From positions 1-58,184 of IMG/VR virus record IMGVR_UViG_3300045988_095259: 58,184 nt of DNA, one strand, 5' to 3'. Under the pieces are notes generated by a model. That model saw only the letters and a program-made list of their open reading frames with translations, did not search any database and had not been told where the DNA came from. Numbering within the stretch: position 1 is the first letter of the stretch; each line of letters starts with the position of its first letter. Source of the DNA: a virus. Below, piece after piece: positions 1 through 57,818 of this stretch. The position numbers and the translations under genes were made by a program.

Positions 1-75
1 ATGGGTTAAAACCGGACACCACCGTTGACGATTATTTTTCCTCTGTAGCCGCAAATGCGCTCGATAACGCATCCA
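1..75. repeat. Terminal overlap of a circularly closed contig (identical to 58110..58184)
   Basis: The first 75 nt (ATGGGTTAAAACCGGACACC...GATAACGCATCCA) recur exactly as the last 75 nt. An ORF reads in frame across the junction. Confidence 0.95.
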
Positions 76-1139
76 ACCCGCAGCGTTCACAGACGGCAAA
101 TGACCTGTGGGACGCATACAATAATAACAACAACCTGCTGAACGGCGAACTCAAGTATGACGCAAACGGCAATGTTGTGGGTGGCTTGAATCTTGACTAC
201 TACAACACAGGGAAAAATCAGCTTAGCTATCTGAATAATTTTGATATTACCGCACAGCCGTATTATCAGGGTATCATGGACGCATACCAGTTAAAGGGGA
301 ATAATGCAGCTCGTGGTGAACAGGCTTCCGGAGCGGCGAACAATGCGGGCAATATCGATTCCTATGCACAAGCGAACGCCAACAGGCAGCAGCTTGCATT
401 CACTACAGCCGGAATTGAATCTGCACTTGCAGCAGCAAACCAGAATCAGGCAAACTGGCAGAACGTTTACAACAGCATGGCAAACCGTCTGACCGGAATG
501 GAGAACAGCAACGCAAACACATTGAACGCATTCCAGAACATCTACGCAACAGATTCTGCGGAGCGGCAGAACACATTGAACACCGCCGCAAGCCTTGCAC
601 AGCAGGAAATGCAGGGCAAAATCAACAAGTACCTTGCGGATGTTGGTTATGATCAGGCAATTTACACAGCGGATAAGGAGCTGGAGGGCAGCAAGTATGC
701 TTCGGACGCAAACACACGTGCAGCACAGATTGCGGCAGATGCAGACAGATACGCCGCAAGCCAGAACTACGCCGGAAAGGTATACGCATCTGATGTGGAA
801 AAAGCGATTGCGGAAATGAATGCAAGAGGGAAAAATGGCGGCTACTATGGACTTGATGGCAACATTACAACGGCAGAATCTCTTGCAAGACAGATGTATG
901 ACGCATACAAGGGCGGCATGCTTGAAGGTGTTACAAGCAAGTACGACTTTGAGAATCTGCTGATTCAGGCTGGCATGGACGCAACGACAGCCGAGAAATG
1001 GGCGGATTATTATCTGAAACGCGACAAGGATATGTTCGCCGAAAATCCATCTTCAGGGAACACTTCTACTTCATCTGGCGGATTTGTTGGCGGCGGCTTA
1101 AAGAGTGTGCTTGACAATTACAATTCGTACAGACCGTAA
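1..1139 (+). CDS. 3' part of a ~450-aa N/Q/A-rich protein (putative virion internal/ejection protein); the 5' part is 57896..58184
   Basis: The frame of ORF 177..1139 stays open back to nt 3 and matches the frame of the ATG at 57896 once the 75-bp overlap is removed. Composition is Asn/Gln/Ala-rich and helical-looking. It sits immediately upstream of the giant gene behind a late-type promoter. The function is inferred from position only. Confidence 0.75.
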   Translation, partial: GLKPDTTVDDYFSSVAANALDNASNPQRSQTANDLWDAYNNNNNLLNGELKYDANGNVVGGLNLDYYNTGKNQLSYLNNFDITAQPYYQGIMDAYQLKGNNAARGEQASGAANNAGNIDSYAQANANRQQLAFTTAGIESALAAANQNQANWQNVYNSMANRLTGMENSNANTLNAFQNIYATDSAERQNTLNTAASLAQQEMQGKINKYLADVGYDQAIYTADKELEGSKYASDANTRAAQIAADADRYAASQNYAGKVYASDVEKAIAEMNARGKNGGYYGLDGNITTAESLARQMYDAYKGGMLEGVTSKYDFENLLIQAGMDATTAEKWADYYLKRDKDMFAENPSSGNTSTSSGGFVGGGLKSVLDNYNSYRP

Positions 1140-1150: not shown

Positions 1151-4100
1151 ATGGCAAAAGATTACGCTGAAATGCTGCGTAAGGCGCGTGAGGGGTATAC
1201 CGCTGCAACAAGTGGCACTACCTCCGGCGCAAGCAAAAGCGGAGCAAAAGACTATGCAAAGATGCTGCAAGACGCACGGAACAGGGTACAGGGTATCCAG
1301 CCCAATAACAACGCAGACGCTGCACAGAGAGCATCCAATGCGCGTACAGTGGCAGCACGGTACTATACCAACAACCTACAGTACCCTGGAACGGTAAAGA
1401 AAACGCCGGAGCAGCAGTCGCACGACCGTGTTGTATATGCAAGGCAGCCGGCAGTACAGCAGCAGTTGAAGAACCGTGCGGATATGTTGAACATTGGGAA
1501 TGCAATCCAGGCAACGCCGCGCAGCCAGAGCGCAATGTCCGGCGCATCCATGGCACAGTCTCTTGCGCAGAATGTTCCGAACCAGTACGCTCCGGCGGAC
1601 AAGAATGCGCTGCCGAAATCGCTTGCAAACGTGCCGTCCAAGAACGTCGAACAGAAAGGCGCGCTTGAATATATCAGCGAAAAAGGGCAGGAAGCATTCT
1701 ATAACGCAAACCAGTCCATCAATCAGACCATTGAAGCAGCTTCACAAGCCGTGTTCGGTTTCTTTGGGGATGTTGTCAATAACAAGGGAGTATCGCCGGA
1801 GGAAAAACTCAATAGCGGTTTGACGAAAGCGAAAGAGAGATTTGTTGATACATTAGAGCAAAACCGTGCAGAAAATCCGTCGGACAGCACGACGGACGTT
1901 GTACCGGAGTACGAATCCGCACGGAGCAAACCTGCTGTGAAGATTGCTGGAGACGTGAATGCTGCCATGTCCTCCATACTGCCGCGATACATGTTAACCA
2001 TGGGAGCTTCAGGTTTGGGCGCAACCGCAGCAAGCGCAGCGGGAACACTCGGCATGGCAACATCAGCCGCGCAGACATTCCAGAACGCATACAACGAAGC
2101 GAGGAATGACGGTGCTGACGAGAACCAAGCGACGTTATTGGCGGCGAGAAATGCAGCCTCTGATGCAGTGATAGAAAGATTCACAGGTGGTGTTCTCGAA
2201 GGCGGTGCAGGCATTGCAGATTCCGCTATCCAGAAGTATGCCGGGAATGCACTCAATAATTTCTTCCGTTCCAAACCGATGGCAAAAACACTTTCGTATG
2301 TCGTTGCAAAAGGTATTGGCGAAGGAACGGAGGAGGTGCTGCAAGACATTGCAAAAACGGAAGCTAAGAGACTGACGTATGGTTCTGACGAAAAGTTAGA
2401 CCCTAAGTCTCTTGCGTATAGCGGCATTCTGGGTTTTGCTATGGGTTCTTTATTTGCCGGGATGGAAGCTCCGGCGCGGTATTCCGTGTACAAGTCCGAC
2501 TACAATACCGTAAACCTTCTGTCTATTGGCGCGGGAGAAGTTAAGAGCAATGCAGACGCAGATTCGATGGAAGCGACCGCTGATGCAATCATCAACGCCG
2601 CAGACAAAGCGATTGACGAATTGCAGAACGCGAAGCCTTCCGAGGATGTAGACGTAAAAGAGGAAATCTCGCGTCTGAATTATGTAAAAGACGGTGCGCA
2701 AAAAGTCAAGGATACGCTGAACGAGAATAGAGCGGACATCATCGAGCAAAACCTCGCGAAAGAGGATGCTACGCAAAACGCCGTTGACGGCACACCGGAT
2801 ACCATTATTGATGATACCGCAAAGCTTGTCAACACGGTCGCGGACACCATTGAACCTGACAAGAATGCCGTGAACGCTACGATTGACCATGTTGTGCAGG
2901 AAATTCGCAACACGGATGTGCAGCAAATTGTGGCACAGACGGATGTTGAAAAGCAGGAGATCGCCGCAAAGCGAAGCAAGCTCGAAGAAATCGACAAGAC
3001 GCTCCGAAACAACAGAAAAGACGTAGAAGAAGCACGTAAAGACACAAAGAACCAGAGCGACACGCCGGAAGTCGGGACAAAGAAAACTGTCTCTGAACCG
3101 ATTGAACCCACGTACAACGAAGGCAAAGGTGTTGTACAGTATTTCGTTCCCGGCAGAAAAACACCTGTTGCGACAAGTACGCAGTCTGACCTTGACACGC
3201 TGAAGCTGTTTGGTGGGAACACAACCATCAAGCAGGCATACGAAACCCCGCTTATGTCCGGACAAGGTGTAAAAACCGTTCTTGATGCGTATGTGTCGCG
3301 GGGATATGGCGATGTCACTCTGCACGATATGTTCGGTTTCGATGGTGAAAACCAGTTTGAAGCAAATGCGTCTCGCAATCCGAACGCAAAGGTTGTCCCG
3401 GTTGACAGTGCCAATGCAAGCACAGCAGAAGCTACTCCGACAACACTCACTCCGACTGCTGTAACCGAAAAAACCGCAGAAACGAGCGAGAAACCGTTGA
3501 CAACGGAGCAGAAGGATGCTACAATTCCGGTAGAGAACGCAGCTCAGGAACAGACCACGGCAGAACAGGCGAAACCAGAAGAAGCACCGACTCAGGAGGC
3601 ACAGACACCAGTAGCAGAAAGCGAAACAACCACAGACAACAGAACCAAACGCGCCCCGAATGAATTCTCGCTGAAGCACGTTGTAAAAAAGCACTCGAAA
3701 ACCGGAGAAGATTTGGACGTATACCAGATTCCGAAGAACCTTTCAAACAACGAATACGCACGTCTCAAAAAGAATATGGTCGGAATCGGTGGCTACTACA
3801 GCAGCTTTGTGAAAGGTTTCATCGTACCTCGCGACAAAATCGACCGTATTGAATATTTCGCAGATGTGGAGGAAGCAGCACCAGCGCAGAAGGTTGACGC
3901 AACAGCCGCTCCGCAGCAATCGGCAGAGACGGTCACTGCACCACAGCAGCCTGTCGAAAAGGTCGAGAATACCGCTGCTACGCTTCAAACGCCTGAAGAA
4001 CCGCAACCAGAACAGCCAAAGCAACAGGTTTTTCAAGAAACCGCACAGCAGGTTCAGAATAAACCCGCTTCCACGCAGATTTCTGATTACGTTCTCGACA

Positions 4101-7100
4101 AACTGACGAACAACGGAAAAATCACCACACAGGAACTGCAAAGCATTGCCGACAAAGCGCACGGCGGTACTATGGCAGAGGGCAAGTATGATGTGAAAGC
4201 CATGACAGATGCAATGGAACTGGGTGTTAACCGATACCTTATCGATACCATATCCAATGCACAATCTGATTTCAACTCGCCGAAAGCCGAAAAGGCGGTG
4301 GAATCCCTTGACGAAATCACGGAATCCATTCTGAACGCAATCCCTACGCAGACAAAGCGTTCCGAGGAACAGGTGTCGCTACAACAGTTTTCCACTCCAC
4401 CGAACATTGCCTACCTTGCATCTTGGATTGCCAACATTGACAACAAGGATACCGTGCTGGAACCGTCTGCCGGAATCGGCGGTCTTGCGTCCTTCGCGAA
4501 AGCGGATGGTGCTACGGTATACGTGAACGAACTGTCCGACAGCCGTTTGGAGATGCTGAAGCAGCTTCCTTTCGACGGGTTCTACAACGAGAATGCGGAA
4601 CAGATTAACAACATTCTGCCGGATTCCGTTTCTCCGTCCGTGGTACTGATGAACCCGCCGTTCTCATCCACAGGCGGAAGAACGAAAAATTCCACCAAAA
4701 ACGCAATCCCGCACATTGAACAGGCACTTCTCCGCTTGCAGGACGGCGGGCGGCTTGTTGCCATCGTTGGCAAGGGCATGGCAGACGATACGCCTACATT
4801 CCGGAATTGGTACAATGAACTTCGCGAGAAGTACAATATCCGTGCAAACATTGGTATTGACGGAGAGAATTACAAGAAGTACGGCACAACATTCGATGTG
4901 CAGATGCTTGTGATTGACAAGACCGGACCGCAAACCGGAGAGACCATCACAGGCACTTACAAAGACCTGCACGAAATTCCTAAGCTATTGGAGGGAATAA
5001 GAAATGACAGAAGTCGAAAAGATCAACAGCTCGAAACTGGGGAAAGTGGTCGGAAAGATGTTGGAATACATCGGGGAGCCGACGTACCTAAAGAACTCGG
5101 TGTGGCTGATACAATACGTGAGAATGTCAGCGGACATGATTCTGGCGTTCCACTGGGAGTATCCGAACAAGGAAATTCTTCTGGAGCAGGAAGAATTGTT
5201 GCAGATACTGAAAATCCCCAACACGCCGGAATCGTACAGACAGATGATGGAGGAAGTGAACGAGGAAGAAGTGATACAGGAATTCGAGAACGGTCTACAG
5301 ACGCTAAAGGACTACATGAAGAAGTATCCGAACGCGGACGAGGAGATATGGCTGTTCAACGGGGAGATAATGCAGGACACGATATTGACAGTGACGGCAG
5401 CACCGCGAGACGAGATAAGCCGAGAACTCGCGGGGATGAACGACTTGGACGCGGAGATGTAGCGGAATCCGCTAAGCAGTATCATAAGGCGGCATTGGAT
5501 TCATCGGAGGACAACGGTACATACGCTACATACACTCCCGAAAAGCTGAATATCAAGGGAGCGAAGCCCCATCCGACGAAGCTGGTAGAATCTTCTGCAA
5601 TGTCTTCTGTTCACGCGCCTGACCTGCATTACGTGCCAAACCTTGACCGCGATATTATCACAAAGGGCGTTCTGTCCGATGCGCAGCTCGAAGCTGTCAT
5701 GTACGCAGGTCAAGCACACGAAACCGTTCTACCAGATGGGAACAGAAAAGGTTTCCTTATCGGTGACGGTACAGGCGTGGGCAAAGGCAGAGAGATTTCC
5801 GGTATTATTCTCGACAATTTCAACAGCGGCAGGACGAAAGCTGTGTGGGTATCCGTATCATCCGGACTTGTAAACGATGCAAGACGAGACTGGGTTGACC
5901 TTGGTGGGAACGAGAAGGATGTTATAGATTTCTCGAAGGAAAAGGGCAAAAAAAGCGGCATCGGGAGATTTGACAAAGGCATCATGTTCGTCTCGTATGA
6001 CACCTTGAAAAGCGGGAAAAAAGGCGGAGAAACCAATGCGGATATAATCGCGGATTGGTTCGGCAAAGACTTCGATGGCGTGATTGTGTTTGACGAAGCG
6101 CACAAGGCTGGAAATCTGATTGGGGAAAAGACTGGTCGTGGTTCTAAAAAGCCATCACAGAACGCCATTAAAGCCAACGATTTTCAGAACTCCCTTAAAA
6201 ACGCACGTGTTGTGTATGCGTCCGCGACAATCGCCGATAAGGTTTCCGGACTTGCATTTGTATCTCGCCTTGGGTTATGGGGAGATGGAACACAATTCAG
6301 CGGCGTGGACGATTTCGTCGGCAAGATAGGCAGCTCCGGTATGGCAGCAATGGAGCTTGTCGCACGAGACATGAAAGCTACAGGTGCATACATATCCAGA
6401 AACCTGTCATACGATGGTGTTGGATACGATAGGCTTGAACACACACTCACGAAAGACCAGGTCTATATGTACAACACAATGAGCGAAGGTTGGCAGGTCG
6501 TTATGCAGGATGTTGATAAGGCAATGCGTATCACCGGCAATAAAAGCAAGAACGCCGATTCGCAGTTGTGGTCTTCCATGATGCGCTTCTATGATCAGGT
6601 GCTTGTATCCATGTCCATGCCAAGTGTAATCAGCGACATAGAAAAGCAGTTGTCTGACGGGAAGGCATGTGTTGTACAGGTTGTAAACACGCAAGAAGCA
6701 GCACAGGAACGTGCCGTTGAGAAGATGCGCGCGGACGGAAGCGAGGATTATGACAATCTCGACATCACTCCGAGACAGATTCTTGAACAGTACCTATTGA
6801 ACAGTTTCCCTGTCGAACAGTATGAGAAATACGTAGACGAGAACGGCAACGAGCAATCAAGAGTTGCGCGTGATTCAAAGGGACAGCCTATCACCAACAA
6901 GGAAGCTGTGGCAATGCGCGATGCTTTGTTGGAGAGAATAAAAGACATAAGCATTCCGGAAGGCCCAATTGATATGCTTATCAATCACTTTGGCAAGGAT
7001 AGGGTCGCGGAAGTATCTGGCAGAGACAGAAGGTTCATTAACGTAACGGATGAAAACGGAAACATAAAGCGTGTAGAGGATGTACGTGGGGACGGAGCGA

Positions 7101-10100
7101 AGAACGGCAGCCGCGCGGCGAACGACGCAGAAGCAAAGGCGTTTCAGGGCGGTGAGAAAGACATTCTTATATTCTCCGCACAAGCTGGAGGTACTGGCTA
7201 CAGTTATCACGCAGATAAGAGAGCGAAAAACAGCCGGCAGAGAGTTGGGTACATCCTGCAAACTGCTCCAAACTCGCAGCTTTTGATGCAGACGATCGGC
7301 AGAATCCACCGTTCAAACGAAGCGTTCCCGCCGATATACAAACTCGTTTCCACAGACCTTTCCGCGCAAAAGCGTTTTGTGACTTCGTCCGCAAGACGGC
7401 TTGAACAGCTCGGCGCATTGACAAAAGGGCAGCGGCAAGCAAGCGGAGGTATCTTCTCGGCAGACGACAATCTGGAAACGGATTTGTCCAGTGACGCACT
7501 TCTTGCGTTCTTTGATAGGCTTGGACACGGTAGAATCCCCGGCATGGATCCGAAAAAGATACTATCGAAGATGGGATATTCTAAGTATTTCTATGACGAA
7601 TACGGGAACTTCAAACTCAACAAAGACACAGGTTCGAACGTAACTCGCTTCTTAAACCGTATACTTGCGCTCGGTGTAGAGGACGGAGACAGAGTATTTG
7701 ATGCATTCATGGACATTCGTCAGGCATACTACGAAGCCGCAGAAGAAGCTGGAACGCTCGATACTGGTATGGAGAACGTGAAAGCGGATAGGCTGGACAT
7801 TGTGCAGCGAGAAACCGTGTACACGGATGAATCTACCGGAGCGGAAACGCAGTACGTACAAGCCAAAGTGTACAACAAGCCGACTGTTATCCAGACGCTG
7901 GACGATGCAATGGCGTACAGACCGCAATTTCAGGGCATCCGCCGCATGGAGGATGGCAGTGTAAGAGCGGTGTACAGAATCGCAGACCAGACCAATTCAT
8001 TTGGTATTCCGGTAAAGCGGTTCAGATTGCAGGGTGCGAACACGGCTGTATCCAACACCATGAGCGAAAAGAACATGAATGCGAAAACGGAAGAAATTCC
8101 GAAAGCAGAGTGGGAAGCCGTGTGGAAAGAAGCAGTCAAGGATGTTCCGGAATACAACGAAAGCGAACTGCACATGATTACAGGTGCGCTCCTTCCGGTA
8201 TGGAACAAGCTGCCGCAGGATGGAAACATCAAGGCAATGCGTATCACTGCCACGGACGGTACGCAGTATCTCGGCAGAGTGATCCCACCAAAGCAGATTG
8301 ACGCAGTTTTGCGCAGTCTCGGTGCAAGCAAAAGCTCCATCAAGAAGCAGTACACAGGAAAGGAACTGTACTCTGCTGTCATGGACAAGGCGCAGGCAGT
8401 CTCGTTTGATGGCTTGTATGGCGCAACATGGACAGTTTCAAGAAGACGTGTTTCCGGCGAAAATCGTTTGGAGGTAACAGGCAGAAACCTGTTCGCGTTC
8501 AAGGAGAAGTATCCGGACGTTTTCACAGAGACAATCCAGTACAAGCAGCGGTATTTCATCCCGGCAGGAAACAAGGGCGAAGAAATTCTCGGTAAACTTG
8601 CGGAAAAGGGAGTGCGCTCCGTCGGGAACCCAGAACCGGATGATGTGGCGTACTACTCCAAGACACAAGGAAACTGGGGTTCTCGTTCTGGGAAAGACGG
8701 TAAGCTGCCTATGCCGAAGAATATTTCCGACATCTACAAAGCAGCGAAAGAAATTTTCGGTATCTCAATCAACTCGGGCAAGGTTAAGAACGGTGCGGAA
8801 GGTGTGTACAACACCCACGCAAATACCATTCGCACAAGAGTGTACGGTGATTTGCCGACAATCGCGCATGAGCTGGGGCATATGTTCGACAAGCAATACA
8901 AACTTTCCGACATGGAATCCGTGAATGAGCTTGTGAAGAACTACAAGACAGACCTTGAAGAAGCAGGATACAACGAAAGCCTGTATCCGAAAGAAGCCGT
9001 TGCAATGTATTTCGCCGACCTGCTGCATGACGGAGAATACGCACAGCAGAAGAATCCGCAATTCAGCACTGCATTGTTCGATGCAATGAGCGACATTGAC
9101 AAGAACAAACTTGCCGACTTCAAGCAAATGACGGAAAACTACTTCCGTATGGACGATAAAGAGCGGCGCAGAGCGCAGGTGCGGTATCGCTACAAGGATA
9201 AGTCCACGATAGGCAAGGCGAAATTCCAGGTGGAATCCTTCCTGAGAGACCCAAAAGGATACATGGGCAAAAGAAGCCGTGATTTCATGCGCGAAATTTT
9301 TGACGATGTGTACGACCTTAAATATTTCGATGGTGCGCACACATTGGCAATGCGCGAACGGCAGTCCGACAGCATAGCAAAAGGGCGTTTGGAATACGCA
9401 TTCACGGACAACCACGGTAAGGTGATAGGCAAGAGCTTAAAGAGCGTTCTCTATGAGGGCGATATAACCGACCTGAATAAGAAAGACTTTGAAGCATATC
9501 TTATCGCGCGTGTCGCGCTTGATCGTCTGGAAAACAACGAGAAAGACCCGACAGCGGCGTATCTCGTGTACGCAGACAAAGACCTCGGCAGCAAAGAAGC
9601 ACTTGTGAATGCCATTCTCGACTATGAGAGAGAGAACCCGACATTCGCGGATACGGCGAACGGTGTGTACGAATACCGTCACAACCTGCTCACTGTAGCT
9701 GTGGCTTCCGGAATCATCTCCGAAAAACTCGCGGAAAGAATGGAGAAGCAACTGCCGCATTATGTTCCGCTGTCCCGCTATGTTGAGGATAAGAACAATG
9801 TGTCTCCGCTTGCGAAATTCAAGGGTTCCGGCAGGGACATCTATTCCCCGATAGAGAACCTTGCTACACAGACGGCAGCAATTACCAAGGCTATCCAGAA
9901 GAATGAGACGCGCAAGGCACTGTTCAATGCTATTGACACAAACGAGGATATGGGCTTGTGGGCAGAAAAAGTACCGCCGGATAAATTCTTTGACAGGGTT
10001 TCCACGCAGGAGATTCCGGATAAGATAATGAAATTCCTGCAAAGCGGTGGAAACGGCACCATGACTGACGATGATATGGTGGAATTCACGGAAGAACTCA

Positions 10101-12094
10101 TGAAGTACATCGGCGGCAGCGTAGGTATGTGGAAGATCAAGAACAAGCAGAATGATAAAATTGTATCTGTCATGCGAAATGGTGTTCCGGAATACTATGA
10201 GATGCACGACCCTGGACTTGTGAAGGCTCTCGAAAACATGAACCCTCATAAATCGAATGCTTTCATTTCTTTCATGGGTACTGCAACGCGCATTTCCTCC
10301 ACGCTCGTAACAAGCGTATCCCCGCGTTTCGGGCTATTCACAAACCCGATCAGGGACTTCAATACCGGATACATCTTCTCCAAGACAACAAACAATCCGG
10401 TTACGTACACTGTAGACTGGTTCAAGGCGTTCATTGAAGCGGTTCGGAATACGGACGATTTCAAGGCGTATGTTGCAAACGGCGGCGGGTACGTAGGCTC
10501 TATCACATCAAACGCGAACGTGCTGCGCGGCATATACAAGGATATGGTTAAGCCGTCAAGCAAACTGAAAGAGAGTATCAACCCCAGAAATTGGCTTGAA
10601 TCTCTATCCGGTCTTGCAAATGCCATTGACTCTTCTCCGAGATTCGCGGAATACAAACGCGCATTGGAGCAAAACGGCGGTGACGTAATCGCAGCCGTTC
10701 AGGAGGGTATGGATGTTACTGTAAACTTCCGCCAGAGCGGCAGAACCACCAAGGCGATAAACAACCTTGTTATGTTCCACAGCGCGAAAGTGACCTCAAT
10801 AGGGCAGAATGCTGAACGTATCCTGACAAACCGTAGAATACTTGCGAAGTGGCTTACCGTCAATCTTTTGAAGACAGCCATGCACATTGCAGCTCTTGTG
10901 CTGTTCTCGAAGATGTTCGATGAAGGTGACGAGGATACATTGCAGGATTATCAGAACCTTTCCACGTACAACAAGTTTGCGAACTGGTGTTACCCGATTG
11001 GTGACGGTCAATTCCTGCGTGTTCCGAAAGAGACAAACGTAATGGATCTATCGTCCGTGTTGGACGCAACATGGGAACGGTTCGTGCTCGAAAATCCGGA
11101 CGCATTCAAAGATGTGGATGAATATCTCGTTGATGCGCTCATGGTCGCAGACCCGAACCCGCTGAAAGCGGCAGGTGACCTTGTCAGTGACGTCACTTTC
11201 TTCGGCACTGTGCTTGATCTTGCAAAGAACGAAACGTTCACTGGTGCGCCAATCGTCCCGAACGGATACCAGTACAGAGCAGCACCTGAACAGTACAACG
11301 AGAAAACATCCGCGCTTGCAATCAAACTCGGCTCTATCACCGGAATGTCACCGTTCCAGATAGACTACATCATAGACGATACCACCGGATTTGTCGGAGA
11401 TGTCATTCTGAATCTGACAAAGCAAGGCGGAACAACGTTGAAAGATGCGGTCGGGCTGAAAGACACAAGCAAGAAGTCGGTACTGAAAGGAATCCCTGTC
11501 CCCGGTGTGGTGTTGCGCGACAGCGTATATTCCACCGATGTTGTCTCCAACTTCTACGACACAAAGGAGGGATACGACAAGCGTTCCGGTTCTTATGATG
11601 CAGTAGGAGAAGCCGGGGGGGAATACTCGTTCTACGATACATACGGTTCCTACAAGTACCAGAAAATCGCAGACGTGTACAGCAAGGCGAATGCACGTCT
11701 GAAGCTCGAAAAGAACGATGAAGCCAAACGTCTGCTGCGTAGAGCAATGAACACGTTCATTCAGTCCGCGAACGATACGGAAAAGACGAAAACGGATGAA
11801 AGAATTTCCAAACTCGCCGAAAATACAGGCTACAACGTTTCGGATATTGCTCCGTACATCGTTGTACCGAATTCCGTGTCCGGGAAGATGCCGGACGGTG
11901 TTAAGGTTTCGTATGACCTGGACGGCTACGATCTTCTCGACTACTACACCATGTCGCAGTTGTACTTCCAGTATTACTGCAACGACATTCTTAACGGAAC
12001 AGGTTCTGACGAAGAAAAGGCAGAAGCCTTGAAAAAAGCAAAGAGGGAGGTGAAAGAGTATCTAAACGATATATTCTTTGAGAAACTGAAGTAA
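1151..12094 (+). CDS. Giant polyvalent protein (3,647 aa): N6-adenine DNA methyltransferase, strawberry-notch/SNF2-like helicase, zincin metallopeptidase, long helical C-terminal region
   Basis: SD GGAGG at 1141-1145 precedes the ATG at 1151. MTase motifs: FSTPP (4388), LEPSAGIGG (4457), NPPF (4652..4663). Helicase motifs: GDGTGVGKGRE (5762), DEAH (6092..6103), ILIFSAQAGGTGYSYH and QTIGRIHRSN (about 7170-7320). HELGH at 8867..8881 has a downstream E. There are N-terminal Gly/Ala-rich hydrophobic segments and a TM-like segment near 10840-10920. Confidence 0.9.
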   Translation: MAKDYAEMLRKAREGYTAATSGTTSGASKSGAKDYAKMLQDARNRVQGIQPNNNADAAQRASNARTVAARYYTNNLQYPGTVKKTPEQQSHDRVVYARQPAVQQQLKNRADMLNIGNAIQATPRSQSAMSGASMAQSLAQNVPNQYAPADKNALPKSLANVPSKNVEQKGALEYISEKGQEAFYNANQSINQTIEAASQAVFGFFGDVVNNKGVSPEEKLNSGLTKAKERFVDTLEQNRAENPSDSTTDVVPEYESARSKPAVKIAGDVNAAMSSILPRYMLTMGASGLGATAASAAGTLGMATSAAQTFQNAYNEARNDGADENQATLLAARNAASDAVIERFTGGVLEGGAGIADSAIQKYAGNALNNFFRSKPMAKTLSYVVAKGIGEGTEEVLQDIAKTEAKRLTYGSDEKLDPKSLAYSGILGFAMGSLFAGMEAPARYSVYKSDYNTVNLLSIGAGEVKSNADADSMEATADAIINAADKAIDELQNAKPSEDVDVKEEISRLNYVKDGAQKVKDTLNENRADIIEQNLAKEDATQNAVDGTPDTIIDDTAKLVNTVADTIEPDKNAVNATIDHVVQEIRNTDVQQIVAQTDVEKQEIAAKRSKLEEIDKTLRNNRKDVEEARKDTKNQSDTPEVGTKKTVSEPIEPTYNEGKGVVQYFVPGRKTPVATSTQSDLDTLKLFGGNTTIKQAYETPLMSGQGVKTVLDAYVSRGYGDVTLHDMFGFDGENQFEANASRNPNAKVVPVDSANASTAEATPTTLTPTAVTEKTAETSEKPLTTEQKDATIPVENAAQEQTTAEQAKPEEAPTQEAQTPVAESETTTDNRTKRAPNEFSLKHVVKKHSKTGEDLDVYQIPKNLSNNEYARLKKNMVGIGGYYSSFVKGFIVPRDKIDRIEYFADVEEAAPAQKVDATAAPQQSAETVTAPQQPVEKVENTAATLQTPEEPQPEQPKQQVFQETAQQVQNKPASTQISDYVLDKLTNNGKITTQELQSIADKAHGGTMAEGKYDVKAMTDAMELGVNRYLIDTISNAQSDFNSPKAEKAVESLDEITESILNAIPTQTKRSEEQVSLQQFSTPPNIAYLASWIANIDNKDTVLEPSAGIGGLASFAKADGATVYVNELSDSRLEMLKQLPFDGFYNENAEQINNILPDSVSPSVVLMNPPFSSTGGRTKNSTKNAIPHIEQALLRLQDGGRLVAIVGKGMADDTPTFRNWYNELREKYNIRANIGIDGENYKKYGTTFDVQMLVIDKTGPQTGETITGTYKDLHEIPKLLEGIRNDRSRKDQQLETGESGRKDVGIHRGADVPKELGVADTIRENVSGHDSGVPLGVSEQGNSSGAGRIVADTENPQHAGIVQTDDGGSERGRSDTGIRERSTDAKGLHEEVSERGRGDMAVQRGDNAGHDIDSDGSTARRDKPRTRGDERLGRGDVAESAKQYHKAALDSSEDNGTYATYTPEKLNIKGAKPHPTKLVESSAMSSVHAPDLHYVPNLDRDIITKGVLSDAQLEAVMYAGQAHETVLPDGNRKGFLIGDGTGVGKGREISGIILDNFNSGRTKAVWVSVSSGLVNDARRDWVDLGGNEKDVIDFSKEKGKKSGIGRFDKGIMFVSYDTLKSGKKGGETNADIIADWFGKDFDGVIVFDEAHKAGNLIGEKTGRGSKKPSQNAIKANDFQNSLKNARVVYASATIADKVSGLAFVSRLGLWGDGTQFSGVDDFVGKIGSSGMAAMELVARDMKATGAYISRNLSYDGVGYDRLEHTLTKDQVYMYNTMSEGWQVVMQDVDKAMRITGNKSKNADSQLWSSMMRFYDQVLVSMSMPSVISDIEKQLSDGKACVVQVVNTQEAAQERAVEKMRADGSEDYDNLDITPRQILEQYLLNSFPVEQYEKYVDENGNEQSRVARDSKGQPITNKEAVAMRDALLERIKDISIPEGPIDMLINHFGKDRVAEVSGRDRRFINVTDENGNIKRVEDVRGDGAKNGSRAANDAEAKAFQGGEKDILIFSAQAGGTGYSYHADKRAKNSRQRVGYILQTAPNSQLLMQTIGRIHRSNEAFPPIYKLVSTDLSAQKRFVTSSARRLEQLGALTKGQRQASGGIFSADDNLETDLSSDALLAFFDRLGHGRIPGMDPKKILSKMGYSKYFYDEYGNFKLNKDTGSNVTRFLNRILALGVEDGDRVFDAFMDIRQAYYEAAEEAGTLDTGMENVKADRLDIVQRETVYTDESTGAETQYVQAKVYNKPTVIQTLDDAMAYRPQFQGIRRMEDGSVRAVYRIADQTNSFGIPVKRFRLQGANTAVSNTMSEKNMNAKTEEIPKAEWEAVWKEAVKDVPEYNESELHMITGALLPVWNKLPQDGNIKAMRITATDGTQYLGRVIPPKQIDAVLRSLGASKSSIKKQYTGKELYSAVMDKAQAVSFDGLYGATWTVSRRRVSGENRLEVTGRNLFAFKEKYPDVFTETIQYKQRYFIPAGNKGEEILGKLAEKGVRSVGNPEPDDVAYYSKTQGNWGSRSGKDGKLPMPKNISDIYKAAKEIFGISINSGKVKNGAEGVYNTHANTIRTRVYGDLPTIAHELGHMFDKQYKLSDMESVNELVKNYKTDLEEAGYNESLYPKEAVAMYFADLLHDGEYAQQKNPQFSTALFDAMSDIDKNKLADFKQMTENYFRMDDKERRRAQVRYRYKDKSTIGKAKFQVESFLRDPKGYMGKRSRDFMREIFDDVYDLKYFDGAHTLAMRERQSDSIAKGRLEYAFTDNHGKVIGKSLKSVLYEGDITDLNKKDFEAYLIARVALDRLENNEKDPTAAYLVYADKDLGSKEALVNAILDYERENPTFADTANGVYEYRHNLLTVAVASGIISEKLAERMEKQLPHYVPLSRYVEDKNNVSPLAKFKGSGRDIYSPIENLATQTAAITKAIQKNETRKALFNAIDTNEDMGLWAEKVPPDKFFDRVSTQEIPDKIMKFLQSGGNGTMTDDDMVEFTEELMKYIGGSVGMWKIKNKQNDKIVSVMRNGVPEYYEMHDPGLVKALENMNPHKSNAFISFMGTATRISSTLVTSVSPRFGLFTNPIRDFNTGYIFSKTTNNPVTYTVDWFKAFIEAVRNTDDFKAYVANGGGYVGSITSNANVLRGIYKDMVKPSSKLKESINPRNWLESLSGLANAIDSSPRFAEYKRALEQNGGDVIAAVQEGMDVTVNFRQSGRTTKAINNLVMFHSAKVTSIGQNAERILTNRRILAKWLTVNLLKTAMHIAALVLFSKMFDEGDEDTLQDYQNLSTYNKFANWCYPIGDGQFLRVPKETNVMDLSSVLDATWERFVLENPDAFKDVDEYLVDALMVADPNPLKAAGDLVSDVTFFGTVLDLAKNETFTGAPIVPNGYQYRAAPEQYNEKTSALAIKLGSITGMSPFQIDYIIDDTTGFVGDVILNLTKQGGTTLKDAVGLKDTSKKSVLKGIPVPGVVLRDSVYSTDVVSNFYDTKEGYDKRSGSYDAVGEAGGEYSFYDTYGSYKYQKIADVYSKANARLKLEKNDEAKRLLRRAMNTFIQSANDTEKTKTDERISKLAENTGYNVSDIAPYIVVPNSVSGKMPDGVKVSYDLDGYDLLDYYTMSQLYFQYYCNDILNGTGSDEEKAEALKKAKREVKEYLNDIFFEKLK
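5004..5462 (+). CDS. Candidate nested (overprinted) gene in the +1 frame of the giant ORF; acidic 152-aa helical-looking protein
   Basis: ATG 5004 lies two codons after a +1-frame TAA. GGAGGG (4990-4995) sits 8 nt upstream. This is the longest same-strand alternative ORF in the giant gene and the only one with an SD. The product looks amphipathic and globular (MTEVEKINSSKLGKVVGKMLEYIG...), while the main frame here encodes a G/R/D/S-rich linker. Codon usage does not support it (only 6/152 T-ending codons). Confidence 0.4.
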   Translation: MTEVEKINSSKLGKVVGKMLEYIGEPTYLKNSVWLIQYVRMSADMILAFHWEYPNKEILLEQEELLQILKIPNTPESYRQMMEEVNEEEVIQEFENGLQTLKDYMKKYPNADEEIWLFNGEIMQDTILTVTAAPRDEISRELAGMNDLDAEM

Positions 12095-12100
12095 CGCAAA

Positions 12101-12133
12101 AGAGCAGGGTTTACACTTCCCTGCTCTTTCTCT
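12101..12133 (+). terminator. Intrinsic terminator after the giant gene
   Basis: AGAGCAGGG (12101-12109) pairs with CCCTGCTCT (12119-12127) around a 9-nt loop, followed by TTCTCT. It starts 7 nt after the TAA at 12092-12094. Confidence 0.7.
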
Positions 12134-12167
12134 GTCTATGCCACTATTTTGCCCGACCGGGTGCAAC

Positions 12168-12296
12168 GAAAAAAGCCCGCCGCAATGACCAACGACAGGC
12201 TTAATTCGAAAGGAGATTTTTATGAAACGAACCTACGGTCACCAAAATGGGAACACGGAAGATTCTCGAACGAAGAGCGGCATCAACTCCCGAACT
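12168..12296 (-). ncRNA. Candidate ~130-nt small RNA bracketed by an orphan promoter and a terminator
   Basis: A near-consensus promoter at 12303..12331 points leftward. A minus-strand-specific hairpin (12174-12201; its G-U pairs form only on this strand) is followed by a U-run (12168-12173). There is no plausible ORF on this strand. The RNA would be antisense to a 27-codon + strand ORF (12222..12305) that has an AAAGGAG SD. Confidence 0.4.
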
Positions 12297-12302
12297 GCTT
12301 AT

Positions 12303-12331
12303 AGTATACCACATTCATCTTGGATTGTCAA
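12303..12331 (-). promoter_or_regulatory. Sigma-70-type promoter (TTGACA, 17 nt, TATACT, with TG extension)
   Basis: The minus strand reads TTGACAatccaagatgaatgtggTATACT. The -35 is at 12326-12331 and the -10 at 12303-12308. Confidence 0.6.
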
Positions 12332-12357: not shown

Positions 12358-12830
12358 TGTTTGCAACGTTGTCAACGATTCCTTTTGAACATTGACAAGA
12401 AGCTCCACTTCCCTTTTCTGTTTGCAACGTTGTCTCCAACACTTTCCTCTGCGTTGTCAACGCTTAACGTAACGCTTTCAGTGCTGGACGCAGTGTTGGC
12501 GGCTTGTTTCTCGCTCTCTATCACGTTCCGGTGTTCCTCGATGTAATTCCTCTGCTGCAATGCTTCAATGGCTCTACGGCTTATTTCCTGCTCTCTCTGT
12601 GCCATTTCCGATAGCTGCTGTGTCACATTTCTGTAAGCGGCATCTTTCTCCGCTATACTCGCTTGCAGTGCTGCAATCATTTCATTTTTTGCCGCAAGCT
12701 CCCTTTGCAACGTTGTAACCACTTCATTGACAGTGTTGCAAAGGATGTCATATTCGGCGTTTGTCTTATCGCTGTTTTCGGCATTTGTCTTGCAAGCATC
12801 ATTGTCAATATCGTTGTTTGCAACATTGCC
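12358..12830. repeat. Four dispersed copies of a TTTGCAAC(G/A)TTG motif containing the palindrome CAACGTTG
   Basis: TGTTTGCAACGTTGTC occurs at 12358-12373 and 12419-12434 (identical 16-mers). TTTGCAACGTTGT is at 12704-12716 and TGTTTGCAACATTG at 12815-12828. The copies fall in different reading frames, and one spans the stop codon, so conservation is at the DNA level. Confidence 0.5.
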
Positions 12831-13025
12831 ATCACGCGACACGCTCATATTGCCATCGCTGTCAACGTTGATTTCGCAGCCGTATAGAGCCGCTGCGGCT
12901 ATGTCTATCGTTTTCGGTTTTGTATCCCTTGTGTATTCATCTGCGCCTTTCTTTGTCCTCACAGACTGAACAGAAACGCCCACAAGCCGCGCAAACTCAG
13001 ATATAGGTATGTATACTCCATTCAT
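12372..13025 (-). CDS. HTH plus coiled-coil replication-associated protein (orfX/RepX-like, downstream of rep)
   Basis: There is an N-terminal HTH (ISEFARLVGVSVQSVR), a long heptad-like middle, and a basic/aromatic C-terminal tail (RKGKWSFLSMFKRNR). That matches the accessory gene following repB in lactococcal-type theta replicons. The ATG lies 4 nt after the rep stop. Confidence 0.75.
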   Translation of the reverse strand: MNGVYIPISEFARLVGVSVQSVRTKKGADEYTRDTKPKTIDIAAAALYGCEINVDSDGNMSVSRDGNVANNDIDNDACKTNAENSDKTNAEYDILCNTVNEVVTTLQRELAAKNEMIAALQASIAEKDAAYRNVTQQLSEMAQREQEISRRAIEALQQRNYIEEHRNVIESEKQAANTASSTESVTLSVDNAEESVGDNVANRKGKWSFLSMFKRNR

Positions 13026-13028
13026 GCT

Positions 13029-13805
13029 TCATCCCTCCAGAACGCAATCTCGCGCAACCGCTGACGTTTCGTCTGCATCATAGTCTTTCCGTGCGAGCAT
13101 AAACCGGATTCTCGCGATTGTCTTTCCGCATCGCACAGGGACGGTGTTCACGTTCATATCCGTGAAGCGGTTGATCTCGTCAATAGCAGGGAAAAGTACA
13201 CGCTTCTTGAAGTCGTTGTACATATCATACCCGACAACCTGTAAAAGTTCACGCAGTTCCTCTACGGACGGTTCATACACACCGAGATAGAGATAGCTTT
13301 TAAGAATCTCATAGAGCCGTATCGCGTATTTCGACTTCATTGCCAGCACGAACCCAAGCTGATACGATGTATAGTTCTGTTTCAGGTACAAGAGAAACGG
13401 TTTCAATTCCGGGTCAAACCCAACGACAGCTTTCTTTGGGATAACACGTTCCAATTGTTCCTTACTCATTCCTGCCGTTTCGGGGAAGTACACACTGTTC
13501 AGCCACCTGTGTATCCCCCACCCTCTGCCAAAATCGGCAAGAAATGAATTGTCGGCAAGGCTTTTGAGTATCTGCACGAAGTCACGGAATGTTTTCGCTT
13601 GCTTCTGTATCCCGCATACTTCACATAGGTTCGATAGATCTACCTCATATCCCGAAAGATCGGTATCTTCCGGTCTTATCTTGCTGATGACATACAGCAG
13701 CAATTTCTGTTCCTGCGATGATAGGTCGTATTTCGTTTTTCGTATCAGATCGTTTTGCTTCACAACAAGTGTGTCTCGTTCCTGCTTCCTGTCCTTTTGT
13801 TCCAT
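13029..13805 (-). CDS. Plasmid replication initiator, Rep_3 (RepB-like) family
   Basis: The sequence resembles Rep_3 initiators (KYDLSSQEQKLLLYVISKI, YAIRLYEILKSYLYLG, FPAIDEINRFTD). SD GGAGGGAG. The gene is directly preceded by iterons. Confidence 0.85.
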   Translation of the reverse strand: MEQKDRKQERDTLVVKQNDLIRKTKYDLSSQEQKLLLYVISKIRPEDTDLSGYEVDLSNLCEVCGIQKQAKTFRDFVQILKSLADNSFLADFGRGWGIHRWLNSVYFPETAGMSKEQLERVIPKKAVVGFDPELKPFLLYLKQNYTSYQLGFVLAMKSKYAIRLYEILKSYLYLGVYEPSVEELRELLQVVGYDMYNDFKKRVLFPAIDEINRFTDMNVNTVPVRCGKTIARIRFMLARKDYDADETSAVARDCVLEG

Positions 13806-13862
13806 TGTTTACTCCCTCCATACCAAATGTCCATATAATCCAGTTTTCAACAGACGTTTATA

Positions 13863-13960
13863 GATACTAATTGTCCGCATCAACACATTTTACCGATACC
13901 ATTTGTCCGTATCATCGATACCATTTGTCCGTATCATCGATACCATTTGTCCGCATAAAA
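13863..13960. repeat. Iterons of the theta origin (22-bp unit, about 3.5 tandem copies plus one degenerate copy)
   Basis: GATACCATTTGTCCGTATCATC occurs at 13895-13916 and 13917-13938 (identical). A partial copy is at 13939-13960 and a degenerate copy, GATACTAATTGTCCGCATCAAC, at 13863-13884. Confidence 0.9.
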
Positions 13961-14027
13961 CCGCTTCTTCCTTATTATTATAAATAAGTATAGAAATATA
14001 TAAATATTTAAGACGCGCGCGCGCGCG
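13961..14027. other. AT-rich putative DNA-unwinding region followed by a (CG)7 tract
   Basis: CTTATTATTATAAATAAGTATAGAAATATATAAATATTTAAG is followed by CGCGCGCGCGCGCG (14014-14027), adjacent to the iterons. Confidence 0.6.
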
Positions 14028-14065
14028 ACACAAATAGGCGCAGCACACAGTTTTCAACAGATATT

Positions 14066-14680
14066 TCACTCCGAAAAGCGTCCGCTTCCTGTCTTGTATT
14101 CTTCCACGATCCGATAATACGTGAATCGACTAATACCGAGTTCATTGCACACAGAGGTCATTGTTCTTCTCTTGCTCTGTATATCGCCGTATAGCCTTCC
14201 AAAACGGTCAGGGTCAATCTTAATGCGCGGCTTTCCCTTATACACGCCACGCGCTTTTGCAGCTTCTATGCCGGCTCTTTGGCGTTCTCGGATACTCTTG
14301 TATTCTTTGTCTGCCACATAGGACAGAAGCAGTATGATTATGTCATTGATAACCTCTCCTGTTTCGCCTGTACCATTCAGCATCGGCATATCCAGAACCT
14401 TGATATGCACACCCTTGTCTTTGGTGAGCATCTGCCATTGCGTTACCGTCTCTCTGTAGTTCCTACCGAGACGGTCAAGAGAGGACACAACAACGGTGTC
14501 TCCGGCACGGAGCAGGGAAGTGAGCCGGATATACTCCGGTCTATTGTAATCCTTGCCGCTTGCAAAGTCGATGAATATCCTATCGTCCGGTATGCCCTCC
14601 GCCCTTGCTTCTGCTATCTGCCTGTCTGGATTCTGTTCCTTTGTCGATACTCTCGCATAGTAAAATACGTATTCCTGCAT
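14066..14680 (-). CDS. Small serine recombinase (resolvase/invertase family) with a C-terminal HTH
   Basis: The catalytic N-terminus reads YYARVSTKEQNPDRQ, followed by SLDRLGRN. It has a C-terminal HTH (MTSVCNELGISRFTYYR) and is 204 aa long. Confidence 0.9.
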   Translation of the reverse strand: MQEYVFYYARVSTKEQNPDRQIAEARAEGIPDDRIFIDFASGKDYNRPEYIRLTSLLRAGDTVVVSSLDRLGRNYRETVTQWQMLTKDKGVHIKVLDMPMLNGTGETGEVINDIIILLLSYVADKEYKSIRERQRAGIEAAKARGVYKGKPRIKIDPDRFGRLYGDIQSKRRTMTSVCNELGISRFTYYRIVEEYKTGSGRFSE

Positions 14681-14702
14681 GATTCACACCCCCATAAGAA
14701 TC

Positions 14703-37153: not shown

Positions 37154-37165
37154 GCGACCTGCTGA

Positions 37166-57792: not shown

Positions 57793-57818
57793 GTACACAT
57801 TGACGGGAAACAGCGCAC

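Follow-up and report, generated by a model that had tools for sequence, protein, structure and literature searches.

The locus analysed here raises the question of what a single protein of 3,647 residues, built from modules that are otherwise unrelated, does for a phage, and whether it acts from within the particle or in the cell in which it is made. The window, i.e. the whole stretch of 58,184 nucleotides that was analysed, has a 75-nt terminal overlap (58110-58184 repeat 1-75) and thus represents a circular genome in full, of about 58.1 kb (58,109 bp). With its terminase, portal and capsid genes this genome is that of a phage, and the combination of a P22-like portal with an SU10-like adaptor identifies it as a podovirus. 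Hence, the absence of genes for a tape measure, tube or sheath, on which the initial annotation had laid weight, is real yet unremarkable, since it is expected of a podovirus. Probably, we are dealing with a temperate-looking, short-tailed phage with a host among the gut Clostridia; the genome-contig search for a host yielded only a distant Xanthobacteraceae relative, and 20 kb compared by megablast with the phage collection gave no match. The nearest capsid and portal are those of Microbacterium phage Shocker, but its 1,743-aa last structural gene matches none of the modules described below, and this phage was set aside as a comparison.

The open reading frame and its enzymatic domains

The frame at 1151-12094 (plus strand) runs from an ATG over 10,944 nt with zero internal stops and encodes, as initially annotated, one protein of 3,647 aa. 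It unites several unrelated enzymatic or effector parts, namely methyltransferase (MTase) motifs, a strawberry-notch ATPase, an HExxH domain and LPD38, which belongs to the domains specific to polyvalent proteins (LPD). All motifs listed in the initial annotation (FSTPP, LEPSAGIGG, NPPF, GDGTGVGKGRE, DEAH and QTIGRIHRSN) are found in the translation, and its term "polyvalent protein" appears to be borne out by LPD38 and by the dyad of MTase and SF2 ATPase. Altogether, the gene encodes a genuine polyvalent protein, of a class of giant phage-particle proteins that has already been described. NCBIfam returned zero matches for the giant protein, and no tape-measure (TMP) family is among its matches in Pfam and PHROG.

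That such a long frame might be an assembly or annotation artefact, fusing two or three genes, is suggested by two relatives with two ORF calls each: in L004 the gene is split into overlapping ORFs of 1,650 and 2,209 aa at a low-complexity linker rich in G, D, R and S (aa 1300-1460; 5048-5530, plus strand), and in L003 the calls are of 2,970 and 1,111 aa. We nevertheless regard an artefact as highly improbable, given the length of the uninterrupted frame, the uniform GC content and skew across the gene, and four proteins from other samples (P0029, P0030, P0033 and P0065; 3,721-4,320 aa) that show the identical domain order in one ORF; most modules also match in P0028 (85% identical, 3,847 aa) and P0038.

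The putative gamma-type N6-adenine MTase (aa 975-1290; 4073-5020, plus strand) carries FSTPP, LEPSAGIGG and NPPF in gamma order, with the catalytic motifs intact in the translation. In PHROG, the matches are phrog_6263 ("DNA methyltransferase", 1.5e-13) and phrog_9133 (1.6e-20, a match that reaches aa 966 only), and tblastn in the phage collection leads to phage methylases and to the "DarB-like" gene of Serratia phage Parlo. In Pfam, N6_Mtase is unmatched and MTS stays under its cut-off. The assignment is thus supported by the PHROG matches, the tblastn matches to phage methylase and DarB-like genes, and the motif order.

C-terminal to the MTase follows an ATPase of the SWI2/SNF2 clade and of the strawberry-notch subtype (5567-7774, plus strand), composed of AAA_34 (aa 1473-1776, E 4.6e-111) and Helicase_C_4 (aa 1939-2208, E 3.6e-64), both Pfam profiles being covered full-length. 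Walker A, DEAH and motif VI of the Sno ATPase family are all present in the translation. Hence, the profile searches strongly recovered the helicase that had been read from the sequence, whereas the MTase emerged from PHROG and not above the Pfam cut-off. When the MTase, ATPase and C-terminal segments were compared with PDB sequences by phmmer, none had a match. Pfam, which may or may not include an LPD36 model, has zero matches N-terminal to the MTase, the place taken by LPD36 in DarB-like dyads. The top and by far longest match in the phage collection, spanning both MTase and strawberry-notch ATPase, is gp3 of Bacteroides phage BS-TP4 (5,391 aa; E 1e-22 for the MTase, phmmer); its gene adjoins the portal gene, and, unlike in the giant, neither the N-terminal module nor the LPD38 module is detectable in it by phmmer.

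The third, putative enzymatic part is a zincin-like domain (aa 2535-2812; 8753-9586, plus strand), delineated by its HExxH motif, its homologues and an AF2 model. HELGH lies at aa 2573 (8867-8881), exactly where it had been placed initially, within the signature NTHA...HELGHMFD...KEAVAMYF, which comprises an upstream His, an Asp at +3 and a downstream Glu. Both HExxH and the downstream Glu are kept in eight metagenomic homologues, and the giant protein of Burkholderia phage CSP3 has HEAFH at a comparable distance upstream. The AF2 model of this region shows strands and two helices (pLDDT 73-90). Pfam, including MPTase, is unmatched by the domain, and PDB sequence and fold searches were empty. 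The motif agrees with the description of the phage-type MPTase clade (PMC5512222): to the HExxH helix and the Glu on the next conserved helix, this clade adds a His where strand 2 ends and an Asp three positions after HExxH.

This architecture resembles the polyvalent proteins described by Iyer et al. (PMC5512222) in its many unrelated domains, in the putative adenine MTase upstream of a SWI2/SNF2-clade ATPase and in the zincin-like HExxH with the His and Asp(+3) signature of the phage clade. Iyer et al. reported in 2017 the MTase-SF2 ATPase dyad, with a strawberry-notch-like version of the ATPase "in a few instances" (PMC5512222); it is this version that we find here, together with an N-terminal module of ~400 aa that no Pfam model describes. 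DarB of phage P1 (2,255 aa), an anti-restriction protein of the virion head, likewise unites an N6-adenine MTase with an SF2 translocase C-terminal to it, and it protects DNA in cis (PMC5512222). From this protein we infer, by analogy, the anti-restriction function proposed below. DarB differs from the giant in that it consists of N6_Mtase/Eco57I and SNF2-rel_dom/Helicase_C domains and has no LPD38; moreover, P1 is a myovirus and the phage studied here a podovirus. Between the two MTases, phmmer detected no pairwise similarity.

The end modules and their homologues in podophage particles

The enzymes are flanked by two non-enzymatic modules. The N-terminal one (aa ~265-650; 1943-3100, plus strand; phmmer, AF2) is helical and includes the Gly/Ala-rich hydrophobic part noted initially, with a hydrophobic segment at aa 420-438. 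A phmmer search of 1.84e9 representatives retrieved 125 clusters, mostly 2,000-4,400 aa long (81 of the 125 at least 1,500 aa), in which the module always lies at aa ~200-850 and the cargo varies (ART-PolyVal, PBECR5, MuF_C and similar domains). These matches mark it as a domain conserved at the N-terminal end of giant polyvalent proteins. It has no covering Pfam model, and its AF2 model is all-helical with a pLDDT of 61, too low for a fold search. A homologue search with the N-terminal 975 aa gave 2 matches and one with the alignment of the module none, low-complexity words having probably swamped the candidates. The module is missing from all experimentally studied homologues (phmmer) and from 50,697 phage records (tblastn).

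The conserved C-terminal module (aa 2813-3506; 9587-11668, plus strand), recognised by tblastn, BLASTP and Foldseek, contains a "PL.R...KFKGSGRDI" region, a hydrophobic helix (aa 3235-3253; 10853-10909, plus strand), which corresponds to the TM-like helix of the initial annotation, and LPD38 (aa 3266-3428; 10946-11434, plus strand; Pfam E 1.7e-26; 93.9 bits, cut-off 27). By tblastn the module matches 332-335 phage records, and homology over the last ~700-1,100 aa is seen in many podophages, always at the C-terminal end of the largest protein that their virion module encodes. BLASTP identified gp19 of Bacillus phage Pascal as the best pairwise match (5e-23), followed by orf71 of Sp5/VT2-Sakai (3.6e-15) and the CSP3 giant (4e-12 over 684 aa). 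Foldseek with the C-terminal model against BFVD gave E values down to 2.5e-31 at a TM of ~0.5 over ~1,000 columns; against the PDB, the best E of 0.2 is meaningless, and known ejection proteins were not recovered as structural homologues.

Two such homologues have been studied experimentally. In virions purified on CsCl, 51 unique peptides of JC1 gp69, a DarB-like protein of a Burkholderia phage, were detected (PMC9144972), and ORF80 of the Stx2 phage Sp5 (2,793 aa) is essential for tailed, infectious particles, its mutant producing DNA-filled heads without tail-fibre antibody binding (PMC5155283). We take Sp5 orf71 (NC_000902, 2,806 aa), from its size and gene adjacency, to be the "ORF80/ECs1242, 2,793 aa" of PMC5155283. 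The C-terminal homology to virion-associated or tail-essential giants thus points towards the virion or ejection role that had been suggested for the giant protein.

Close counterparts in several respects are the DarB-like giants of the Bcep22-like podophages (Lessievirus; JC1 gp69 with 4,515 aa, CSP3 with 4,647 aa) and of Serratia phage Parlo (3,764 aa), which share the podophage context, the giant size, MTase and helicase, an HExxH about 250 aa upstream of the homologous C-terminal module and a ~500-aa virion-protein gene immediately upstream. They differ by an N-terminal lytic transglycosylase, a helicase of HepA/SNF2 type and the missing N-terminal module; moreover, their genes close the structural operon and share its strand, and their hosts are Gram-negative. 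The giant of Sp5/VT2-Sakai, also from a podovirus, has the C-terminal module with LPD38 (7.7e-48 in Sp5), and its gene, the largest of the late genes, is also the final one and follows a gene of ~420 aa; in contrast to the protein studied here, it carries LPD5, LPD1 and MuF_C as cargo, lacks MTase and ATPase, and has an essential function established by experiment. In the Bacillus Pagevirus Pascal, a Gram-positive podophage, the gene for gp19 (1,672 aa) closes the series of tail genes and precedes the holin gene, but this protein contains no recognisable enzymes and no HExxH. Finally, a 2,718-aa protein (L023) from an alphaproteobacterial genome, a Xanthobacteraceae MAG, combines strawberry-notch ATPase and LPD38 and lacks the N-terminal part.

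These comparisons also allow the giant to be read mainly as a structural part or ejection factor that the phage cannot do without, be it to complete the tail or to form a channel, an "ejectosome" that replaces the tape measure, with the enzymes as dispensable passengers and anti-restriction as a secondary matter. Indeed, the only module common to the characterised homologues is the non-enzymatic C-terminal one; Sp5 ORF80 is essential for tailed particles with LPD5, LPD1, MuF_C and LPD38 but no MTase or helicase; Pascal gp19 has LPD38 only, encoded between tail genes and holin; hydrophobic stretches of the CSP3 and Pascal homologues line up with the helix at aa 3235-3253; and in relatives the enzymes are exchanged while both end modules are kept. 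However, the catalytic motifs of MTase and ATPase are intact, and the order MTase-ATPase-zincin-LPD38 recurs in several clusters less than 50% identical to each other, which argues for selection on the enzymes, and known ejection proteins show no structural homology to the C-terminal model. We therefore hold this reading to be possible, if on the doubtful side; for the most part it is compatible with the delivery of anti-restriction enzymes rather than exclusive of it.

The exchange of cargo is seen in the relatives, which retain the N- and C-terminal modules, whereas their enzymatic middle is exchanged or split. In L003, the upstream gene and the N-terminal module are still present, the ATPase cargo is a different one, and zincin and LPD38 are encoded as a separate protein of 1,111 aa. 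Such relatives delimit the modules cleanly and form a natural series of exchanged cargoes that is useful for packaging and delivery tests.

The two-gene operon and its promoter

The giant gene lies in a compact arrangement of terminator hairpin, promoter, two tightly spaced genes and terminator hairpin. The first of these, a terminator-like hairpin followed by UUUUGU (57755-57794, plus strand; RNA fold), closes the early plus-strand operon and overlaps the stop codon of a 92-aa ORF (57499-57777); its stability of -21.9 kcal/mol (z -5.4) was reached by 0 of 200 shuffles. Next comes the promoter of the two-gene operon (57795-57857, plus strand), with a 17-mer at 57819-57835, a 16-nt spacer and the extended -10 TGGTATCAT (57849-57857), identical in the 95%-identical relative L017. 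The gene upstream of the giant one had been recognised initially as an "N/Q-rich" ORF, but its extent was misjudged: it starts at 57896, crosses the junction of the circular genome (57896-58109, continuing at window positions 1-1139, plus strand) and encodes 450 aa, with its stop 11 nt before the ATG of the giant gene, which is preceded by a GGAGG ribosome-binding site. The 450-aa protein is rich in A, N, Y, G, D, L and Q and has no match in Pfam, PHROG or phage-collection tblastn; homologues with 48-51% identity are encoded immediately 5' of the giant gene in L003 and L004. Directly after the stop of the giant gene, a second terminator-like hairpin with a U-rich tail follows (12099-12135, plus strand; -18.3 kcal/mol, z -4.7).

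As stated in the initial annotation, the giant gene stands outside the structural operon (TerS, HNH, TerL, portal, MCP and further genes) and on the other strand; the two converge and use the same type of promoter. The structural-operon promoter (37306-37369, minus strand) has the 17-mer at 37345-37329, a 17-nt spacer and TGG TATAAT (37314-37306). The 17-mer, AAAAGATGTCACTTTTT, occurs in exactly two copies in the genome, at 57819-57835 (plus strand) and 37329-37345 (minus strand), against an expected count of 0.16 even with 3 mismatches allowed. Thus, the initial observation of a shared 17-mer holds, with matching geometry of both copies, and the likeness extends over about 41 nt plus TGGTAT(C/A)ATAT at 16-17 nt spacing. 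In L018, a relative with ~74% identity, the 17-mer and the -10 are kept despite a diverged spacer. Among viral contigs the 17-mer has 13 exact matches, mostly unrelated singletons, L017 and L018 being the only relatives; it was not found in the more distant L003 and L004.

Conservation of this shared element in relatives supports the co-regulation with the structural operon that had been proposed. Since the promoter is of the type that serves the terminase-portal-capsid operon, the observed similarity suggests that the giant gene is expressed late. The element could, however, be an operator for a repressor instead of a late-activator site. As a regulator, the adjacent 92-aa ORF (57499-57777) was considered, an ArpU or sigma-region-4-like late activator being the candidate; this idea is unsupported, as the ORF has no family match in Pfam, NCBIfam or PHROG.

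The giant gene follows immediately on the replication/SSB region, with the same orientation and outside the structural operon. This location would also fit a late enzyme that stays inside the cell and is neither packaged nor delivered, methylating progeny DNA ahead of packaging or remodelling DNA in replication or packaging; pairs of strawberry-notch ATPase and MTase are indeed known outside virion contexts too (PMC5512222). We consider this unlikely. A terminator hairpin and a separate promoter of structural type isolate the giant gene from the early genes, the enzymes are fused to LPD38 and a ~1,000-aa module otherwise found at the C-termini of virion-module giants, and the protein is very large, with a conserved non-enzymatic module at its N-terminus.

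Proposed role and significance

Altogether, we lean towards a polyvalent protein that is made late and delivered with the virion, its MTase-ATPase pair pre-empting restriction. In this mechanism, which we read from sequence and homology, the giant gene and the upstream 450-aa gene would be co-transcribed as a two-gene operon. The giant would be built into the particle via its conserved C-terminal ~1,100 aa, here taken to include the zincin-like domain, the "PLxRFG"-like region, the hydrophobic helix and LPD38; this C-terminal module is the only part in common with the giant virion proteins of other podophages. At infection the protein may exit the particle with the DNA, and the adenine methylase and the strawberry-notch-type translocase would modify or shield the incoming DNA before restriction by the host, as has been proposed for P1 DarB. 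More speculatively, the zincin-like domain might cut the polyprotein at low-complexity linkers. The helical, hydrophobic N-terminal module may represent a second conserved "chassis" element, enzymatic cargo being swapped between the end modules.

A bolder extension of this mechanism, for which we would claim only a small share of the probability, is that the N-terminal and the zincin-LPD38 modules constitute the delivery chassis of a large clade of uncultured phages. Any enzymatic cargo, such as MTase-ATPase, ADP-ribosyltransferase, RNase-like PBECR or SNF2, could be slotted between them and injected, while a trans-envelope conduit, formed or lined by hydrophobic helices from both end modules, would replace tape-measure or ejection proteins in Gram-positive podophages.

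In summary, our analysis leaves the current picture of polyvalent or DarB-like proteins unchanged; the protein is a good further example of a kind already known. A giant polyvalent protein of an uncultured phage, probably of gut Clostridia, can now be viewed within a complete circular genome, in which its gene forms part of an insulated two-gene operon of late type and not of the structural operon. Furthermore, the analysis draws attention to an N-terminal domain family that is present in 125 clusters and has so far carried no annotation.

Domain composition of the giant protein

The giant ORF (1151-12094, plus strand) starts with ATG and runs for 3,647 codons with no internal stop, and every motif quoted in the initial annotation is found in its translation, with HELGH at aa 2573 (nt 8867). 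Pfam strongly matches a strawberry-notch-type ATPase, through AAA_34 (aa 1473-1776, E 4.6e-111) and the strawberry-notch C-terminal domain Helicase_C_4 (aa 1939-2208, E 3.6e-64), as well as LPD38 (aa 3266-3428, E 1.7e-26). Together with the intact ORF and the motifs, these matches confirm the multi-domain protein, including the helicase, that had been read from the sequence. The methyltransferase (MTase) is less strongly supported than the ATPase and LPD38: PHROGs recognises it ('DNA methyltransferase', 1.5e-13; phrog_9133, 1.6e-20) and in tblastn it matches genes annotated as methylase or 'DarB-like antirestriction protein', but the Pfam MTS model falls under the cut-off. Its order of FxTP, motif I and NPPF is that of gamma-class N6-adenine enzymes. 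No family match was found for the HExxH region. The motif and a Glu ~44 residues downstream are kept in eight metagenomic homologues, and the giant protein of Burkholderia phage CSP3 has HEAFH at a comparable position. Furthermore, NTHA...HELGHMFD agrees with the His/Asp(+3) signature of the phage-type metallopeptidase clade of Iyer et al. (PMC5512222). Two 19-mers, aa 420-438 and aa 3235-3253, are moderately hydrophobic.

The C-terminal region, initially called uncharacterised, is in fact homologous to the C-termini of podophage giants. By tblastn, the module at aa ~2813-3506 matches 332-335 phage records, podophages nearly throughout and always at the C-terminal end of a very large late gene; carriers include 36-37-kb phages of Vibrio, Shewanella and Thalassomonas, Pelagibacter phages, Bacillus Pageviruses, 933W-like Stx phages and one Burkholderia Lessievirus. 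Pairwise BLASTP gives 5e-23 for gp19 of Bacillus phage Pascal, 3.6e-15 for Sp5 orf71 and 4e-12 for the CSP3 giant. We take this orf71 (NC_000902) to be Sp5 ORF80, since no other gene of ~2,800 aa occurs in that phage and both share a neighbour. The AF2 model built for aa 2535-3647 (pLDDT 74, pTM 0.56) is helical for the most part and has no counterpart in the PDB; in BFVD it matches C-terminal chunks of dozens of viral giants (E down to 2.5e-31, TM ~0.5 across ~1,000 columns) that are annotated as methylase, RelA/SpoT or lytic-transglycosylase. Such matches among differently annotated giants argue, at the level of predicted structure, that the conserved unit is the entire ~1,000-aa module, beyond the 189-aa LPD38.

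At the other end, aa ~265-650 (1943-3100, plus strand) constitute an unannotated helical domain family, the N-module, which no Pfam model covers. When aa 251-975 were searched exhaustively by phmmer against 1.84 billion representatives, 125 clusters were returned, 81 of them of at least 1,500 aa (longest 4,452 aa), with the match near the N-terminus in every one. They are mostly polyvalent proteins of 2,000-4,400 aa with varied cargo, and most of the others share the N-module alone with the giant protein. Fourteen of these carry ART-PolyVal (7 proteins), PBECR5 (3), MuF_C (3), or else LPD3, PBECR3, SNF2, LPD23 or metallopeptidases. The N-module is absent from the CSP3, Sp5 and Pascal giants, BS-TP4 and DarB by phmmer, and tblastn of the phage collection gave no match, with none in cultured phages. 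Its AF2 model is all-helical at low confidence (pLDDT 61).

Modular exchange among relatives

Module boundaries were taken from two relatives. In L004, the upstream gene has a 470-aa homologue (48% identity), followed by a 1,650-aa ORF with the N-terminal part and the MTase, and by a 2,209-aa ORF with the ATPase, zincin and LPD38, the split falling in a G/D/R-rich linker. In this 48-59%-identical relative (L004:5085-16630) the two called ORFs overlap by 37 nt inside the linker, which may reflect a genuine split, a frameshift or an error in sequencing. In L003, a 472-aa upstream homologue precedes a 2,970-aa ORF that shares the N-terminal segments yet carries different, SNF2-type cargo; next comes a stand-alone 1,111-aa protein equivalent to aa 2535-3647, then an integrase and converging structural genes. 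These arrangements show modular exchange. A fusion artefact in the long ORF is ruled out: four N-module clusters (P0029, P0030, P0033, P0065) have the full MTase-ATPase-zincin-LPD38 order within one ORF, and most modules are matched in P0028 (85% identical) and P0038.

Genome organisation and the shared promoter element

Positions 58110-58184 of the window are an exact 75-nt repeat of positions 1-75. The genome is therefore complete, at 58,109 bp, and either circular or terminally redundant, and features close to either end have to be followed across the junction. The window has no tRNA genes, and a search of 50,697 phage records gave no near relative. On the minus strand, the block between 36.8 and ~12.4 kb encodes TerS, an HNH endonuclease, TerL, portal, major capsid protein, a tail-fibre-like protein, an M23 peptidase and a holin. 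The portal resembles those of P22 (1.5e-19) and SU10, and ORF 28518-29135 is similar to the SU10 adaptor, which identifies a short-tailed phage; hence the lack of tape-measure, tube and sheath genes, correctly noted before, is expected rather than anomalous. The M23 domain lies at the N-terminus of a 376-aa protein (18955-20085, minus strand), with a homologue equally placed in L003; in other phages, endolysins, minor head proteins and tape-measure proteins can all contain such a domain, and the protein here may be an endolysin or a virion-associated lysin. The structural operon has an untranslated leader of ~500 nt (36791-37300, minus strand), in which a 13-nt direct repeat, GATCAGCCCCCGT (36942 and 37018), flanks an 11-nt inverted repeat (36973-36983/37002-37012); adjoining TerS and the HNH endonuclease, these repeats could be a cos/pac or a regulatory site.

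The plus-strand block (37.5-57.5 kb) opens at a perfect TTGACA-17-TGGTATAAT promoter and, given its Bro-N, DnaD-like, DnaC-like and SSB genes, is the early/replication region. Just 3' of this strong promoter, in the gap separating the first small early ORF from the second, a type-P5 twister ribozyme is matched at 37733-37795 (plus strand; 48.3 bits, E 5e-7, Rfam gathering cut-off 37.6).

Downstream of SSB and a 92-aa ORF (57499-57777, plus strand) lies a strong hairpin with UUUUGU (57755-57794, plus strand; -21.9 kcal/mol, z -5.4). The small ORF ends within this terminator, directly 5' of the giant-operon promoter; Pfam, NCBIfam and PHROGs offer no family match for it, and it is a candidate regulator by position alone. 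After the promoter region comes the upstream gene, of which only the last 320 codons had been seen; the full gene has 450 codons and runs on the plus strand from 57896 across the junction to 1139. The giant gene begins 11 nt further on, preceded by GGAGG, and directly after its stop is a second hairpin (-18.3 kcal/mol, z -4.7) followed by a U-rich tail. This layout of hairpin, promoter, two genes and hairpin implies an insulated two-gene operon, which is transcribed convergently towards the end of the minus-strand block. In the interval separating the giant gene from the minus-strand genes, a near-consensus sigma-70 promoter (12331->12303, minus strand; TTGACA-17-TATACT with TG) is followed after ~100 nt by a terminator hairpin (12202-12173, minus strand), which suggests a putative small RNA within 12173-12331. 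Nearby, a cassette at 12569-14729 (minus strand) holds a RepE/RepM-like replication initiator (13029-13805) and a small serine recombinase (14066-14680). It is absent from the 93%-identical relative L020, and L003 has a tyrosine integrase in its place (L003:13490-14539); the maintenance module looks swappable, possibly between plasmid-prophage and integrating lifestyles.

The 17-mer AAAAGATGTCACTTTTT, said to be shared with the structural-operon promoter, indeed has exactly two copies in the genome, at 57819-57835 (plus strand) and 37329-37345 (minus strand), against a chance expectation of just 0.16 matches with three mismatches allowed. The similarity exceeds the 17-mer: ~41 nt upstream align, and both promoters have an extended -10, TGGTAT(C/A)ATAT, 16-17 nt downstream of it. 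As CTTTTT occupies the expected -35 position, the promoter would fit dependence on an activator or alternative factor; no regulator was identified. The giant-operon copy is retained in L017 (95% identical), and in L018 (~74% identical) the structural-operon 17-mer and -10 are kept while the spacer between them has diverged, which indicates that selection acts on the element. The 17-mer is absent in the more distant L003 and L004. Given this shared, conserved element, co-regulation of the giant operon with the terminase-portal-capsid operon is well supported.

Likeness to known systems and a proposed role

In the Bcep22-like podophage JC1, the 4,515-aa 'DarB-like' gp69 (51 unique peptides) and gp68 (~510 aa), encoded directly upstream, are both found in CsCl-purified virions (PMC9144972). 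The head protein DarB of P1 protects DNA in cis, and Iyer et al. proposed that methylase and SWI2/SNF2 translocase cooperate on injected DNA (PMC5512222). DarB consists of N6_Mtase and SNF2-rel_dom/Helicase_C without LPD38, unlike the giant protein, and phmmer finds no similarity between it and the giant protein's MTase. The strawberry-notch ATPase is rare among cultured phages; the best match to MTase plus ATPase, and among the matches listed the only one covering both, is gp3 of Bacteroides phage BS-TP4 (5,391 aa, portal adjoining). In a Xanthobacteraceae MAG, a strawberry-notch domain and LPD38 occur together in a 2,718-aa protein that adjoins an InPase-bearing one.

We propose that the giant operon is expressed late, a timing we infer, and that its product would enter the particle by way of the C-terminal module and be ejected together with the DNA, where the MTase-translocase pair would methylate or shield the incoming DNA in a DarB-like manner. 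More speculatively, the zincin might process the protein itself at low-complexity linkers, and the two hydrophobic helices might have membrane or channel roles. In the Stx2 phage Sp5, the 2,793-aa ORF80 is essential, and its deletion leaves DNA-filled heads to which tail-fibre antibody does not bind (PMC5155283); the main alternative differs in emphasis, in that the giant protein may likewise be foremost a structural or ejection component that the phage cannot do without, its enzymes being cargo.

In summary, homology supports the interpretation as a polyvalent protein, and the class is already known from polyvalent proteins and the DarB-like giant virion proteins of podophages. This member of the class has a less common ATPase subtype, an unannotated N-terminal domain and an unusual stand-alone operon.
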